Source: a virus
Lineage: Duplodnaviria > Caudoviricetes
Length of the DNA stretch: 64,000 bases
Virus record (IMG/VR): IMGVR_UViG_3300010362_000016
Location: 1 to 64,000 of that record
Direction: 5' to 3' (one strand)
Numbering within the stretch: the first letter of the stretch is position 1; every line of letters begins with the position of its first letter. Below, piece after piece: positions 8,032 to 44,702 of the stretch. The position numbers were made by a program, and so were the translations under genes. Under the pieces are notes generated by a model. The model had not been told where the DNA came from and made no database searches. It saw only the letters and a program-made list of their open reading frames with translations.

Positions 8032-8061
8032 ACTATACCACGTACGTAAGTAAGTTGTCAA
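8032..8061 (-). promoter_or_regulatory. Repeat promoter/operator copy 10
   Basis: actata cc acgtacgt aagtaagt tgtcaa. Confidence 0.9.
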
Positions 8062-11642: not shown

Positions 11643-11672
11643 ACTATACCACGTACGTCACTACGTTGTCAA
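11643..11672 (-). promoter_or_regulatory. Repeat promoter/operator copy 14
   Basis: actata cc acgtacgt cactacgt tgtcaa. Confidence 0.9.
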
Positions 11673-24667: not shown

Positions 24668-24939
24668 AAGCCCAAGACAAAGTTCGTGTATATCCCCACG
24701 GCTCCCCGGATCAAGCCGCCCTAGCAACCATCCTGATTGTCTCCGACAATCAGCGTTCCATCGCAGTCGAGTTCTCCGACCGGCCTCCCTTCGCCGTTGA
24801 TAAGTCCGGCGGGATGATGCTCCACAGGGAACATGGAACCATCGTCATGATGGCCACACGAGGAGAACTCAACGGCAGGGCCTGGGGCCCCTGGATCGAG
24901 ATGAGGGGCGGCGGTCATTACGAGATCGAACTTTCATGA
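24661..24939 (+). CDS. Hypothetical protein
   Basis: 92 aa ORF overlapping its neighbours. Confidence 0.7.
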   Translation: MLKAQDKVRVYPHGSPDQAALATILIVSDNQRSIAVEFSDRPPFAVDKSGGMMLHREHGTIVMMATRGELNGRAWGPWIEMRGGGHYEIELS

Positions 24940-25439
24940 TCGATCAACTCCGAACTTATCTAGAACAATTCGTCGCCCTCCACCACTCCATCGAACCGGA
25001 TCGGAAAATGCGCTTCGCCTGCATCGAGGATTTAATCCTCCAACACGGCTCAGAATACATCCTCAGCCACGTGAAGCATCCCGCCCAGCCCAGCGGTTGT
25101 TTCGCCCGGGCTTACCGGCTCGCCACGCGATATCCCCACCGCTGGATCTACGTCGAGGGCTACGCCCTCGCGCCGGGCGTCCCGATCCCGCTCCAGCACG
25201 CCTGGGTCAGCCCGGTCGATTCTCCCGGAACCGCCGTCGAACTCGCCTGGGGCAAACCCAACCAAGCCCCGGCTTATCTAGGCGTCCCCTTCAAACCGTC
25301 CTACATCAAAAGCGTCTTCATCGCCTCCAAACGCCAATGGCTCTCGGCCCTTGATACATTCTGGCTCAGATACCCGTTGATCACCGGCAAAGTCCGCATC
25401 GAAGACGTCATCTACAAAGGAGATCAACCCCATGGGTAA
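24936..25439 (+). CDS. Hypothetical protein, possible papain/transglutaminase-like fold
   Basis: GCF..A...YVEGYA...HAW...ELAW. Confidence 0.72.
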   Translation: MIDQLRTYLEQFVALHHSIEPDRKMRFACIEDLILQHGSEYILSHVKHPAQPSGCFARAYRLATRYPHRWIYVEGYALAPGVPIPLQHAWVSPVDSPGTAVELAWGKPNQAPAYLGVPFKPSYIKSVFIASKRQWLSALDTFWLRYPLITGKVRIEDVIYKGDQPHG

Positions 25440-25779
25440 CTTCGGCCAGGACATCAACGGAGCCTTCCGACGTTTAGAAGACGGTCGGGTCCTCCGGATC
25501 AACAAGCGGATGTTCAACACCCTCTTGAGCCTCTCCGCAAGCGTCGAGGCTCCCGTCTGGCTGGAGGGCTGGTGATACCTTCGCGAAGAAGACGCCGTGC
25601 GCGACTTCGTCACCTGGGAACCCGGCTCATCCGTCATCTGCATCCTCTGCGGTCGAACCAGATCAACCCACGAACCCCCCGGGAACTGGCAGCGCCACTA
25701 TCCATCCCAGCGTAGACGTCTTCCGCTCCTCGGCCCGGGCTCCTCCATCACTGGATATCTGGAATTTCATCATCCCTGA
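25432..25779 (+). CDS. 115-codon ORF with in-frame TGA at codon 48 (selenocysteine/readthrough candidate, or pseudogene)
   Basis: ATG 25432; ...LEGW*YLREE...; frame continues to TGA 25777-79, which lies in the -35 of the next promoter. Confidence 0.6.
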
Positions 25780-25805
25780 CGTTCAGCTAACGTACGTGGT
25801 ATAGT
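25776..25805 (+). promoter_or_regulatory. Plus-strand copy of the repeat promoter/operator in front of the RHH gene
   Basis: CTGACG ttcagcta acgtacgt gg TATAGT. Confidence 0.8.
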
Positions 25806-26060: not shown

Positions 26061-26987
26061 ATGAGTCTGCTGGCTGAAATGTTGAGCAACCCCAAGACGT
26101 GCATACGCTGCATGCCAGAAAGCGCCGCCGCAGACCTGCGGGCCGACTTACGCCGGGTTCCGATTATCCAGTGCAGCAACGTAGCGCACTATTTGTTCGA
26201 GCATACTAACCTGAACGACTGGTATAAGGAGGGCTTCGAGAATCTGGCTCCGCCGTTTGAGCGGTTCTGGATGGAATTCAAGGTCCCCAAGGCCGTGATC
26301 CTGTCGCAGGAGCGCGTGGAGTGGAAGTTGTCCGGAGATTATCTCGGCGCTTTGATCGAGGGGTCCAAGCGTCCCCCTTGGACGCTGGATCTGAGCACCT
26401 TCGTCGATATCGATTCTCGACCCTTCGACTGCTCGTACATGTTCACGTTCCACGTCGAGTTAGACGACGATGCACATACCATCCTGCTGCCGGGCTCGAC
26501 GAGACCTGAAATGTTCATCCCCCATGGCACTTCACTGAGGCATATGATCGATGGCTTTCGGTATACGCCGGAGGAGACTGAGAAGCTAAAGGTCGCCGCT
26601 ATGATCCATTGGGCGGCGCTGTTCCCCATGTTTCTGGCCATCTCCTTCATGCACTGCAAAAACGTAACGCTGAAGCAGCAGGCGTCCGACGCGGCCCTGG
26701 CCAAGCGCAATCTGCAACGCGGCAAGCCGTCCCTGAAGTATCATGTGATCGAAATCGAGCCGCTGAAACAGATCCTGCGCACCGAGGGCCGGATCGAAAC
26801 CGAGGGCCTTCCGAAGGCCCTGCACATCTGCCGGGGCCACTTCGCGAAGTACGCCGAGGATGGACCCGGTCTCTTCGGCAAAGGCATCCACGGTCGGTTC
26901 TGGATTCCACAACATGTGCGCGGCAGCGAAAAAAGGGGCGTGGTCGTCAGCGATTACAACGTCAAAGCGCCCAAGGAAAGAGCGTAA
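26061..26987 (+). CDS. Conserved phage hypothetical protein (paralog of 21131..22066)
   Basis: NLAPPF..FW.E, FMHCKNV, LHICRGHF..Y....LFGK. Confidence 0.82.
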   Translation: MSLLAEMLSNPKTCIRCMPESAAADLRADLRRVPIIQCSNVAHYLFEHTNLNDWYKEGFENLAPPFERFWMEFKVPKAVILSQERVEWKLSGDYLGALIEGSKRPPWTLDLSTFVDIDSRPFDCSYMFTFHVELDDDAHTILLPGSTRPEMFIPHGTSLRHMIDGFRYTPEETEKLKVAAMIHWAALFPMFLAISFMHCKNVTLKQQASDAALAKRNLQRGKPSLKYHVIEIEPLKQILRTEGRIETEGLPKALHICRGHFAKYAEDGPGLFGKGIHGRFWIPQHVRGSEKRGVVVSDYNVKAPKERA

Positions 26988-41147: not shown

Positions 41148-44100
41148 ATGATCACGGATGATGGGTTGAATTTTGTTGGGCCTCCCGGGTACAGGGCCGG
41201 GGAGTTGGTGGCCAAGATGGCTCCCGAGGGGAGTGGAATCAGTAAGGTGTTGGTGATGGCCGAGGCCCTGGGGGAGCACGAGGCGTTGGATAGGTTGCCG
41301 CTCAGGCCGTATGCTGAAGCCGGGAGTGTGTTTCAGAATGTGCTGCGGCACGCCAGGGTTGAGAGAGGGACGCTGGCGATCAGTAACTTGTGTTGGTATC
41401 GGCCCCCGAGGAATTGGCTGGAGGGTTCGCCCTGGCAATCGGATGCGATTCAGCTTTGTCGTCCGCTGAACGATGAGTTAATCGAGAAGGTCAGGCCGAA
41501 GGCCATCCTGGCCTTGGGCGGCATGGCTTTTCGGGAGTTGACCGGCCTTGGAGGAGAGAAGCAAGGGATTGAGATGTGCCGGGGGTTCATCGTCCCTTCG
41601 ATCAAGGAGAGGGTGACGTGGACCCGGGACGAGGGCGGGGCCCTGCGGCCTGTCATGGGGTTGGTCCCATGGGATTCGGTGCCGGTCGTGGGGACTTACC
41701 ATCCGAGCTTCCTCCGCCGTGGGGCCAAGGAACGCGAGAAGGGCGGTGGCGAGGCCGCTCAGGGCCGCACCGTGGCGGCTGGGGGCGGCACCCAGGGCAT
41801 GAACCTCCTCGGGGTCCTCATCCGCGATCTAAAGCTCTGCTTCGAAATCGTCCGCAGCGGCGTTCCCAAATTCGAATACTCGGATTACAAGCTGGAAGCT
41901 ACATTAGCCGACTGGAAGCAGGCCCTCGAATATCTCCGGGCCCACCCCAGGCTACCCATCAGCTACGACTTCGAAACTCTCGACTCCCTTGTCAGGGAAT
42001 CCGAAGAAGACGCCGAACATATCAAGCGCGACGTAACCCAGGTTCAAATTTCCTGGATGATCGGTCAGGCCCTCGTCAGCACGTGGTTCTCCGATTTACT
42101 TCCTGTGCTGCGGGAAATCCTCCAGCTACCCAACCCGAAGGTCGATTGGAACGGCAGAAAGTTCGACCGGCCCATTTGCCGGGAGATGGCCATCCGCTGC
42201 GACATCGGGGAGTGGATCGACCTCATGGATCTGTGGCACCACGCCCAGCCGGATTTACCCAGGGGACTGCAATTCGCGACCAGCTTCGTCTGCCCTGAAG
42301 TTGGTCCGTGGAAGCACTTCGCCATCAGCGATGCTCTCCGGTATGGAGCATATGACGTCGATATGCCCCAGAGGATTCTGGCCGGGCTCCAGCGGTCGCT
42401 CAGCCTCATCCGTGACTCCAATTCAGGAATGTCCCTTTGGGGCGACGGTCGCTACGCCGGGTTCACCGGGCAGGTCCTCCGGCTGTCTCCCGTCCTCGAT
42501 GGAATGACCGCCCGAGGCATCCCGGTCGATGAGGATCGCAGATCCAAACTCGACGAGGAATTTTCCCGCACCTTAGGTCGAGTCCACTACGCCGATTATC
42601 TCCGGGACCACAACCTCCCCGAACTAACCAACGAGGAACTCAACAAAATCGAAGGCATCTCGGATCGGTTGCAGGGCCTCATCCCCGATGAGGTGAAGAG
42701 CGTCGATCCCCCCAAGGGATATAAAAATCGACCGAAGGAACTCAGCCGGGAGTGTTCAACCTGCGCAGGGAAAAAACTCGTCACCAACCCCGAGTGGAAG
42801 CCCCGGCGGATCAAGGGCAAGCGAAAGCTCAAGGAAGTCGTCTCGGAGAAATTCGAGTTCCCTTCTTCCGTAGACGAGTTCGTCGAATTGATCGTCGAGA
42901 GCGTCGATTTGAGCTTGATCCCAGCGATGGCCGAGACGACCGAGGAGAAGATCCCGAAAAGGATTCGCTGCGGGAGTTGTGAAGGTGAAGGAAGGATCAA
43001 CCTGAGGGAAGCGGAGCTTCCCGAAGGCTGGGTCCGGCGAAACTTCGACGACGAGGAGAAGTGCGAGTGCGTGAAGGCCGCGAATCAAGCCATCGCCCGG
43101 GCGAAGAGGGAATCCAAAAAAGCCCTCAAGGTCCTCGTGAAAGCAGCAGCCGTGATCGGCCCGGGCGACGGGCCGAAGCCCGTCGCTGATTCTGATTTTG
43201 CCCGTCCGCCCAAAGCCGATTGGACCGGGCTTCTCCACTGTCCAAAATGCGGCGGCACCGGCAAGGTCAAAATCACCGAGCAACGCTGGTCCAGGCTCGC
43301 TCCGTTTTTGCCCAACGGCTCCGCCCAGGTTCTCCGGTATATCCGGTTCAAATTCGCCGAGGAGAGCCAGCAGCTAAATCAAAAATTCCTGGAGAACCCC
43401 CCGGCCAAGACGACCATGGAGGAGTTCGTCGAGCGCCGCCGGAAGTGGATCGTCCCCACGGATTATAAGACCGGAGCCGAAACCAGCGGCGAAGCTGAAC
43501 TTCGAAGGTTAGCTAGTCGAACGGCTGATCCGGTCCTGCCGATGATCCTCGAATTCCGCGAGGTCGCCAAGCTTCGCGGCACTTACGTCAAGGGCTGGAC
43601 TCCTTCCAATGTTCAACAATTCCTCGATCCCGAAACCAACCTCATCCGCAGAATCGGACGGGTTCATCCCACATTCGGGTTTCGTCCGGCCACCGGACAG
43701 CTAAGTAGCGAGAACCCCAACGCGCAGAATTTCCCTTCGCACTCTGAACTTTCCCACGCCATGTTGAAGATGATTTCCTCGCGGCCCAGGTTCAGGATGG
43801 TGAAGTTCGATTACAAAAGCTTCCACGCGATCACGGCGGGGTTCGAGGCGAAGGATGTGGATTGGATCAGGATTGCCCGAGTCGATATTCATTCGTTCTT
43901 GACGCTGGTGGGGTTGGTTAAAGCAGAGAAGCCCGAGGTGGCGTTCGGGTGGGATCAACCGGAATTAAAAGATCGGTTGAAGTGGTGGCGAAAGCAGGAC
44001 CGGCTTTATTCGGCGTATGCGAGGCAGAAACATCCGGCAGGGATGACGTTCGGGGAGATTCGGGATGAGATCGCTAAGCGGGTGGTTTATGGATGGGAGT

Positions 44101-44702
44101 TCGGGCAGGGAGATCGTTCGCTTTATATGTTGAATCCCGAGTCGTTCACTTCCGTGGCGGAGGCGGGGAAATTCCAGGGTGAACTGGTGAGGTTGTTTTC
44201 AAAGATTGAGCGATGGCAGGGGGACGTCAGGTTGGAGGCGGACAGGAATCATTGTTTGACGTCGAGGTATGGGTATATCCGGAGATTCTGGGAGGTTTTT
44301 TCTCATCGGAGGGTGAAGGAGAATTACGAACCCAGGCGAGGTGAGGCGCTTTATTTGGATGGGAGAGGGGATCGGTGGGTGAGGAAGCCTGGAGCGGATC
44401 ACGAGGCCGTGGTGGCGTTCCGACCGGCGAATGATGCTTTTGGAATGAAGCGGGCGGCTCAGGTCAAAATCGCGGAGCAAGGTCTCGACGAGAAGTACGG
44501 TTTGATCTGCGACGTGCATGACGATATCCGGTTCGAGTGTCCTTCGGAGTTCCTGGATGAGATGTTGCCGGTGGTAAAGGGGATCATGGAGGAGAAGTCG
44601 CCTTACCTAGTGGATGCGGTGGTTGCTCCGGAGGGATTGTGGTGCGGAGTTGAGGGAGCCGTGGGGGCGGATTGGGATTGCTTGGAGAAAATTGAGATAT
44701 AA
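41148..44702 (+). CDS. polA: Family A DNA polymerase with N-terminal uracil-DNA-glycosylase-like domain, 3'-5' exonuclease and Zn-finger thumb insertion
   Basis: UDG-like AEALG...TYHPSF; exo YDFET, WNGRKFD, YGAYD; pol ATGQLSSENPNAQN, FDYKSFH, AKRVVYG, VHDD. Confidence 0.93.
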   Translation: MITDDGLNFVGPPGYRAGELVAKMAPEGSGISKVLVMAEALGEHEALDRLPLRPYAEAGSVFQNVLRHARVERGTLAISNLCWYRPPRNWLEGSPWQSDAIQLCRPLNDELIEKVRPKAILALGGMAFRELTGLGGEKQGIEMCRGFIVPSIKERVTWTRDEGGALRPVMGLVPWDSVPVVGTYHPSFLRRGAKEREKGGGEAAQGRTVAAGGGTQGMNLLGVLIRDLKLCFEIVRSGVPKFEYSDYKLEATLADWKQALEYLRAHPRLPISYDFETLDSLVRESEEDAEHIKRDVTQVQISWMIGQALVSTWFSDLLPVLREILQLPNPKVDWNGRKFDRPICREMAIRCDIGEWIDLMDLWHHAQPDLPRGLQFATSFVCPEVGPWKHFAISDALRYGAYDVDMPQRILAGLQRSLSLIRDSNSGMSLWGDGRYAGFTGQVLRLSPVLDGMTARGIPVDEDRRSKLDEEFSRTLGRVHYADYLRDHNLPELTNEELNKIEGISDRLQGLIPDEVKSVDPPKGYKNRPKELSRECSTCAGKKLVTNPEWKPRRIKGKRKLKEVVSEKFEFPSSVDEFVELIVESVDLSLIPAMAETTEEKIPKRIRCGSCEGEGRINLREAELPEGWVRRNFDDEEKCECVKAANQAIARAKRESKKALKVLVKAAAVIGPGDGPKPVADSDFARPPKADWTGLLHCPKCGGTGKVKITEQRWSRLAPFLPNGSAQVLRYIRFKFAEESQQLNQKFLENPPAKTTMEEFVERRRKWIVPTDYKTGAETSGEAELRRLASRTADPVLPMILEFREVAKLRGTYVKGWTPSNVQQFLDPETNLIRRIGRVHPTFGFRPATGQLSSENPNAQNFPSHSELSHAMLKMISSRPRFRMVKFDYKSFHAITAGFEAKDVDWIRIARVDIHSFLTLVGLVKAEKPEVAFGWDQPELKDRLKWWRKQDRLYSAYARQKHPAGMTFGEIRDEIAKRVVYGWEFGQGDRSLYMLNPESFTSVAEAGKFQGELVRLFSKIERWQGDVRLEADRNHCLTSRYGYIRRFWEVFSHRRVKENYEPRRGEALYLDGRGDRWVRKPGADHEAVVAFRPANDAFGMKRAAQVKIAEQGLDEKYGLICDVHDDIRFECPSEFLDEMLPVVKGIMEEKSPYLVDAVVAPEGLWCGVEGAVGADWDCLEKIEI

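Follow-up and report, generated by a model that had tools for sequence, protein, structure and literature searches.

The locus described here lies in the first 64 kb of a 73-kb viral contig from IMG/VR (IMGVR_UViG_3300010362_000016, from an uncultured soil phage of the Caudoviricetes, with an estimated completeness of 63%); this stretch of 64,000 nucleotides is referred to below as the window. At positions 25432-25779, on the plus strand as are all features of the locus, the window carries a reading frame interrupted by a single UGA. Judged by sequence comparison, it is probably one small early gene, encoding a phage selenoprotein of about 115 residues with selenocysteine (Sec) at residue 48, inserted by the SelB of the host. 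A Shine-Dalgarno-like AAGGAG (25417-25422, read from the sequence) stands 9 nt 5' of the start codon, ATG 25432-34, which overlaps the stop codon of an upstream gene for 167 amino acids (aa) (ATGGGTAA). An N-terminal part of 47 codons (25432-25572) precedes the UGA (25573-25575), the proposed Sec codon, which falls between ..EGW and YLREE.. in translation. The C-terminal part of 67 codons (25576-25776), with WEPG, CxxC, PPGxW, and RRR motifs, leads to the true stop codon, TGA 25777-25779, as read in the sequence. This second stop is likewise TGA in the relatives for which the gene end was read (L003 and L005-L007; the contig of L004 ends within the gene).

Just 3' of the UGA, a hairpin (25588-25608) resembling a selenocysteine insertion sequence (SECIS) pairs GAAGACGC (25588-95) with GCGACTTC (25601-08), in a stem of 7 bp with one A.A mismatch, under an apical loop CGUGC (25596-600). 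Counting the U of the UGA as 1, G25 and U26 of this loop fall at 25597-98, and 20 nt separate UGA from loop. The GUG in the loop (25597-25599) is where finders of open reading frames (ORFs) start a separate ORF of 60 aa, 25597-25779 (compare P0012 and P0015). The frame from ATG through the internal TGA to its final stop had been described with the right coordinates in an earlier, sequence-only reading of the window. That reading had also described the hairpin, its loop and mismatch, and a possible pairing of GGTGAT with GTCACC that engages the UGA itself, and we find these as described.

Relatives were sought by comparing the read-through product with the full set of 1.8 billion representative proteins. 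Matches were of two kinds. The first are full-length proteins that span the stop. The second are pieces, namely several proteins of 47 residues, 45-60% identical and with the same last residue (..GW), and proteins of 60-65 residues that start just beyond. Gene callers have produced the 47-aa protein for the N-terminal piece in the window phage and in at least four relatives (P0003, P0013, P0014, P0016, P0023), and two more relatives (P0019, P0021) have longer annotated products with the same last residue. DNA of the relatives was fetched, and metagenome and viral contigs were scanned with the family alignment. A word-index homologue search and single-sequence locus scans returned no matches, and a protein scan of genome contigs found no family member. 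Two candidate relatives, P0011 and P0022, are long repeat proteins and were set aside as spurious.

Pieces of just this kind (P0003, P0013, P0014, P0016, and P0023 on one side, P0012 and P0015 on the other) are what gene callers predict, in keeping with a UGA that is a real stop. The locus would then hold a 47-residue peptide gene followed by a second gene, whose 60 residues would be translated by re-initiation at GUG 25597, with the block around the GUG aiding initiation or coupling. We regard such a split gene as quite improbable, and the conservation of the codons between UGA and GUG is one reason.

The subfamily of the window protein, which carries a CxxC insert, was assembled by protein similarity alone and comprises 20 distinct loci, which come from about 19 samples and share 46-60% identity with the window protein. 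The codon for residue 48 is TGA in 20/20 (the window and all 19 close relatives whose DNA was read) and TAA or TAG in none, and the frame stays open for about 65 codons past it. A sister subfamily that lacks the CxxC, 27 distinct loci from a protein-based scan of IMG/VR, has TGA at this column in 23 loci, a Cys codon in 3, and a Leu codon (TTA) in 1. A codon with no role other than termination would be expected to alternate between TAA, TAG, and TGA, yet across both subfamilies 43 of 43 UGA loci have TGA. The codon right after the UGA encodes Tyr or Phe in all 20 loci, with TAC and TAT in a ratio of 10:10; a residue kept while synonymous codons vary indicates that the stretch from UGA to loop is translated. 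The seven codons from UGA to GUG never contain a stop or an indel, and the first of them encodes Tyr or Phe in the uninterrupted homologues as well, which argues against two separate genes. Further downstream, the C-terminal part combines invariant residues with third positions that are free to vary, a pattern of selection on the protein that holds for both halves of the gene.

The same comparison disposes of explanations by artefact or decay, under which the TGA would be a sequencing error, a recent nonsense mutation in what is now a pseudogene, or one instance of a phage-wide reassignment of TGA. The sequence-only reading had kept the first two as alternatives, and the single window, taken alone, gives no means of dismissing them. 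The recurrence of the same TGA in independent assemblies from about 19 samples excludes both, and the protein-level selection on both halves of the gene points the same way. As for reassignment, TGA terminates 23 of the 47 long ORFs of the window and is the commonest ordinary stop there, long ORFs take up 78% of the window when genetic code 11 is applied, and no tRNA gene, suppressor or other, occurs in the phage record; the phage is therefore not recoded genome-wide in the manner of codes 4 and 25. We assign virtually no probability to this group of explanations.

The read-through protein can be aligned over its whole domain with a family of small phage proteins characterized by GW-[C/U]-Y, sharing the motifs DGR..., GW[C/U]Y, A.., W.P, P.GW.R, and RRR. 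By phmmer it matches its six closest full-length homologues (P0004 and P0006-P0010) with E-values of 1e-10 to 1e-22, and P0017, P0018, and P0020 more weakly. Among cultured phages, tblastn finds the family in jumbo phages of Caulobacter and Brevundimonas, annotated there as a single hypothetical protein. Cys occupies the UGA column in gp257c of Caulobacter phage CcrBL9 (AXQ69281.1; context DRWCY) and in MARCHEWKA_02620 of Brevundimonas phage vB_BpoS-Marchewka (UTC28774.1; context DRYCY), as it does in P0018, P0020, L018, L077, L078, and L086. A motif that the sequence-only reading had given for a common phage family, W-C-Y...W...EP.GW.RH...RRR, with Cys predicted to stand at the UGA, is thereby borne out. 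The CcrBL9 and Marchewka proteins, which align with the window family over the whole domain and are about 33-36% identical to the sister-subfamily query P0024 (the alignment reference), share with it the motifs [WY]-C-Y, W.., EP.GW.[RK]H, and RR. They differ in having TGC for TGA, no hairpin, and none of the CxxC insert of the window subfamily.

Sense residues found at the column among homologues are Cys, Thr, Ser, Arg, and Leu. Cys is the commonest, at 7 of the 9 non-UGA loci for which the DNA was read, and Trp occurs in no homologue. These residues bear on a further explanation, programmed read-through without Sec, in which a near-cognate tRNA (for Trp, Cys, or Arg) would decode the UGA under stimulation by the hairpin and yield short and long products in a fixed ratio. 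A column that accepts five different residues suits such a mechanism, and a conserved UGA in an open frame with downstream structure is as typical of read-through signals as of Sec insertion. Its usual product, Trp, is the residue that the family never has, whereas the pairing of UGA with Cys in homologues, together with a bacterial SECIS (bSECIS), is the accepted mark of a bacterial selenoprotein (PMC1088965, PMC13188914). We consider this kind of read-through unlikely.

A tree built from 58 members of the family puts the window in a well-supported clade made up of 20 UGA forms and one Thr form. As drawn, with an arbitrary root, the tree nests this UGA clade among the Thr and Ser forms, with the Cys forms branching beyond them; within the other subfamily it is UGA forms that surround those with Cys and Leu. 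Since the root is arbitrary, no direction of change is drawn from it. The Thr and Ser forms (P0004/L097 and P0006-P0010/L098) are uninterrupted and have the CxxC insert in common with the window subfamily. The closest Thr-form homologue (P0004, 228 aa, at L097:1501-2187), which the tree places within the UGA clade or beside it, has about 100 additional residues fused at its C-terminus; its DNA still has a 7-bp stem at the position of the hairpin, without G25-U26. The Leu codon of the IMG/VR locus L093:1501-1647, TTA, is one base from TGA, and a GGUC remnant is present with its stem broken. L093 looks like a lineage that has lost recoding.

Beyond the UGA, the nucleotides themselves appear constrained. 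Across the 20 loci, the entropy of third codon positions (H3) is 0 at codons +6 to +9 after the UGA and 0.29 at codon +10, compared with mostly 1.0-1.9 bits at neighbouring third positions (Trp codons aside). Amino acids nevertheless vary at codon +6 (A/D/I/L/V) and codon +9 (C/R/S), and fixed third positions under varying amino acids indicate a constraint on nucleotides rather than on protein. The 11-nt block concerned, C GCC GUG NGC G (25593-25603), is kept in 20/20 loci of the CxxC subfamily and contains the four third positions of zero entropy; the fifth position, that of codon +10, lies just past it. The block forms three C-G/G-C pairs that close the loop CGUGN, beyond which the stem continues through a 1x1 mismatch and a G-C pair to another two or three pairs. 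Covariation is seen at the first outer pair, which is A-U in 10 loci, U-A in 4, G-C in 1, and G-U in 1. Over the subfamily 79.4% of cells pair in this hairpin, a value reached by 1 of 500 shuffles. Invariance of the GUG in 20/20 of these loci would also be expected if it served as a start codon.

Most members of the sister subfamily have a different hairpin at the same place, GCN GCG GUC GCN GCN, with a stem of 5 to 8 bp and the loop GGUC. Here 91.9% of cells pair, and covariation is strong, with a score of 0.537 compared with 0.221 +/- 0.034 for shuffles, of which 0 of 500 reach it. The changes are compensatory and fall at synonymous sites, one pair showing six pair types. This subfamily keeps the UGA yet has GUC, which is no start codon, at the position of the GUG, and no conserved Shine-Dalgarno sequence precedes the GUG where it occurs; both observations count against re-initiation. 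In both types of hairpin, G and U occupy positions 25 and 26 from the U of the UGA. A hairpin with G25-U26 is found in 40 of 43 UGA loci and in 0 of 9 non-UGA loci (Fisher p = 6e-8, without phylogenetic correction), so that relatives keep UGA and hairpin together, as the sequence-only reading would predict. That features specific to bSECIS elements (a small loop, G then U, a fixed distance) are kept across two stem sequences also counts against read-through of a generic kind. Two UGA loci were seen to depart from the pattern. The IMG/VR relative L072:174-419 keeps TGA with no recognizable hairpin at the usual place, and L079 has the stem with a loop AAUU.

Pairing of the UGA itself is less distinct. 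In the lower stem, GGTGAT 25571-76 with GTCACC 25609-14, 70.8% of cells pair and the 5' side is invariant; sliding by -3 gives 67.5%. RNAalifold offers an alternative, a long-range UGGUG/CGCCG pairing that rests on invariant columns only.

The bSECIS consensus has been described as an apical loop of 3-9 nt on an upper stem of 4-16 bp, with a G within the first two positions of the loop and most often G or U after it, a distance of 16-37 nt from UGA to loop, and a minimum free energy (MFE) of -7.5 kcal/mol or lower (PMC13188914). The window element, with a 5-nt loop, a stem of 7 bp plus one mismatch, G-U at loop positions 2-3, and a spacing of 20 nt, agrees with these constraints on shape and distance. 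Its MFE in a 36-nt window is -8.7 kcal/mol, and values at or below -7.5 are found here and in 12 of the 20 loci. Resemblance to bacterial genes with a SECIS inside the ORF, of which E. coli fdhF is the prototype, extends to the in-frame UGA with Cys in homologues, the hairpin in coding sequence just 3' of the UGA, and the small loop with an early G and then U. The fdhF hairpin has a GGUC-containing loop with G23 and U24. The GGUC loop of the sister subfamily is the same as this loop core, and the spacing of G25-U26 in the phage loci is 2 nt longer than that of G23-U24. The present gene differs from fdhF in its loop CGUGN and in the stem beneath, where 3 bp of GC adjoin an internal mismatch, and from bacterial selenoprotein genes generally in being phage-encoded rather than cellular and in belonging to a protein family without a fold match. 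Its dependence on SelB and its selenium are predicted from sequence.

An AlphaFold2 model of the read-through protein shows one compact domain, with a predicted local distance difference test score (pLDDT) of 89.3 and a predicted TM-score (pTM) of 0.80. Residue 48 lies in the beta-strand 45-49, just before the only long helix, and a single domain with the UGA inside a strand speaks against the split gene. Neither Pfam nor PHROGs has a family that matches the whole protein, its halves, or its homologues, and a sequence profile search of PDB found no match. Fold searches with the confident model gave nothing clear (best E of 0.6 for Foldseek against PDB, best E of 0.05 for BFVD, best Z of 4.4 for VIA wide). 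The interchange of Sec, Cys, Ser, and Thr at a strand position suggests, as a guess, a nucleophilic or redox-active side chain.

Under the proposed reading as a selenoprotein gene, a ribosome arriving at UGA 25573-75 would meet the hairpin 25588-25608, whose apical loop, with G25 and U26, would be presented to the SelB.GTP.Sec-tRNA(Sec) complex of the host. Sec would then be inserted at the UGA in place of termination. Should insertion fail, for want of selenium or in a host without the machinery, only the N-terminal fragment of 47 residues would be made. SelB dependence, selenium incorporation, and the host are the parts of this reading that we infer.

Several results weigh against it. The window hairpin by itself is no better than chance: a 61-nt fold has -17.4 kcal/mol compared with -19.0 +/- 3.2 for shuffles (z +0.51), a further shuffle comparison of the window fold gave z +1.0, and of the 136 TGAs in the window flanked on each side by 40 or more open codons, 17 satisfy loose bSECIS rules. 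This hairpin has an internal mismatch and shows little covariation of its own. In 8 of the 20 subfamily loci the energy is weaker than the consensus threshold, -5.6 to -7.4 kcal/mol in the 36-nt window. No Rfam SECIS family matches at E <= 10 within 25400-25800, a negative that says little, bacterial SECIS elements being so diverse. The UGA column is occupied by Thr or Ser in the nearest full-length relatives, with Cys confined to more distant members. Genes for selB and tRNA-Sec, like selA and selD, are absent from the 73-kb phage record, and selA, selB, and tRNA-Sec were not found in a Terracidiphilus metagenome-assembled genome (MAG), the only MAG with a close relative of the window phage. 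Comparison across relatives is what lifts the hairpin above chance. The same comparison supports Sec insertion with host machinery, which the sequence-only reading had proposed and which we hold to be probable, with the amendment that Thr and Ser rather than Cys are found in the closest homologues.

Hints as to the host come from scanning 185,579 species genomes for a DNA pattern. Among the 25 matches, 2 belong to the family, 4 represent one homologous gene of Verrucomicrobiales, and 19 are chance-like. Both family matches are in MAGs of Acidobacteriota. In the first, from Ca. Multivoradales, the relative's gene is on a separate contig of 54 kb, and the MAG has selA, selB, tRNA-Sec, and a selD that itself contains Sec. 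The second is the Terracidiphilus MAG, where a 13-kb contig (L105) has at least 6 genes in common with the window at 20.5-27 kb. The MAG is fragmented, and L105 is pure phage, with no host flank, and is tied to the MAG by binning only. The failure to find Sec machinery in this associated MAG is a point in favour of the split gene, and a host machinery that is only presumed is one for read-through. In the taxonomic family of the Terracidiphilus MAG, 112 of the 151 genomes sampled have a selA that scores above the curated cut-off, a count that includes the unpublished G426 and G407, both positive (110 of 149 without them). In Caulobacter vibrioides, the host species of phages with Cys forms, no selA match was found in control genomes. 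A profile scan of 401 Acidobacteriota genomes returned only the already-known MAG, so the assignment of a host through prophages failed. The phage hairpin does not share the geometry of the selD SECIS elements in the associated MAGs, and these provide no host-specific match. The hints toward Acidobacteriota, with selA common there, are consistent with the use of Sec and do not amount to proof.

We note for selD that its in-frame TGA, in the Ca. Multivoradales MAG (L100, in G002) and in one Verrucomicrobiales MAG (L099, in G003), stands at the conserved site, between ..GG and A.K.G.., and that the two downstream hairpins are spaced differently, the loop lying at about +21 in one and about +35 in the other.

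The four Verrucomicrobiales matches (L029:6044-6682 on the plus strand, also L039, L041, and L042) are in a cellular gene for a signal-peptide protein, with an in-frame TGA between ..ATFSMW and YD.G.AAVRG.. in translation. The block CGCCGUGNGCG follows the TGA at the spacing seen in the phage gene, and the protein is conserved across the TGA in the four MAGs. The DNA pattern itself was the means by which all four were found; their block and spacing thus follow from the selection and are not independent observations. Three of the MAGs were searched for Sec machinery; selA and tRNA-Sec are present in all three and selB in two. The protein has no Pfam family. We regard the gene as a candidate bacterial selenoprotein.

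The wider surroundings of the gene are those of a phage with a replication module of its own, including a D5-like primase, a PIF1/RecD-like helicase, an HD-domain protein, and a family A DNA polymerase fused to a uracil-DNA glycosylase (UDG) domain. The fusion is an ORF of 1184 aa at 41148-44702 (plus strand), with a domain of the uracil-DNA-glycosylase superfamily at residues 32-194 in addition to the family A polymerase domain. Small genes of the window stand in long runs behind a promoter-like motif that recurs, and the candidate gene is in one such run. The motif, ACGTACGTGGTATAGT, consists of a palindromic ACGTACGT box and a -10-like TATAGT and occurs at 20 sites of the window with up to 3 mismatches, compared with 0.09 expected; we read it as a repeated promoter or operator of the phage. 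Its copies lie mostly on the minus strand in the region 0-15 kb (for example 8032-8047 and 11643-11658, both minus), and one copy, 25790-25805 on the plus strand, directly follows the stop of the candidate gene. Genes flanking the candidate (24936-25439 and 26061-26987) have homologues in the viral contigs L001 and L002. The candidate gene is absent from the corresponding slot of both contigs, which hold unrelated genes there, such as an ORF of 273 aa in L002, and it therefore sits in a variable cassette region.

Literature searches found no report of a phage-encoded selenoprotein. The use of Sec is documented for cells and for two poxviruses. A 2021 review of recoding mentions no phage-encoded selenoprotein (PMC8310308), and in a 2026 review of the prokaryotic selenoproteome the words "phage" and "virus" do not occur (PMC13188914). 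The only viral selenoproteins listed in reviews are two glutathione peroxidases, one from molluscum contagiosum virus and one from fowlpox virus (PMC8310308). They resemble the present case in being products of viral genes in which UGA is redefined as Sec by the machinery of the host, and the SECIS of fowlpox virus is also in the coding region. They differ in being captured cellular genes with eukaryotic SECIS elements, compared with a phage-specific family and a SECIS of bacterial type. Phages are known to reassign stop codons, for example reading TAG as Gln in code 15 (PMC9523058). An ORF continuing through a standard stop codon is common to both situations; reassignment affects many genes and involves suppressor tRNAs, whereas here a single codon of a single gene is concerned and the record has no tRNAs.

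A wider scenario, which we put forward tentatively, is that phages of soil bacteria, probably Acidobacteriota, make selenoproteins by way of host SelB. The residue that is Sec, Cys, Ser, or Thr might then serve as active nucleophile in a small enzyme or binding fold of a new kind. The UGA might also act as a switch, allowing the full-length early protein only in hosts that are replete in selenium and competent for Sec insertion, and leaving a fragment of 47 residues under other conditions.

If the gene does encode a selenoprotein, bacterial viruses would be users of the 21st amino acid, and the family would be a new one among selenoproteins. The hairpins with CGUGN and GGUC loops and G25-U26 would represent compact natural variants of SECIS. 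Gene callers would be splitting such genes systematically, as they have here, leaving a 47-aa and a 60-aa "protein" in the databases. Infection by these phages would be coupled to the Sec machinery of the host and to its selenium status, a link that could aid host prediction and might limit host range.

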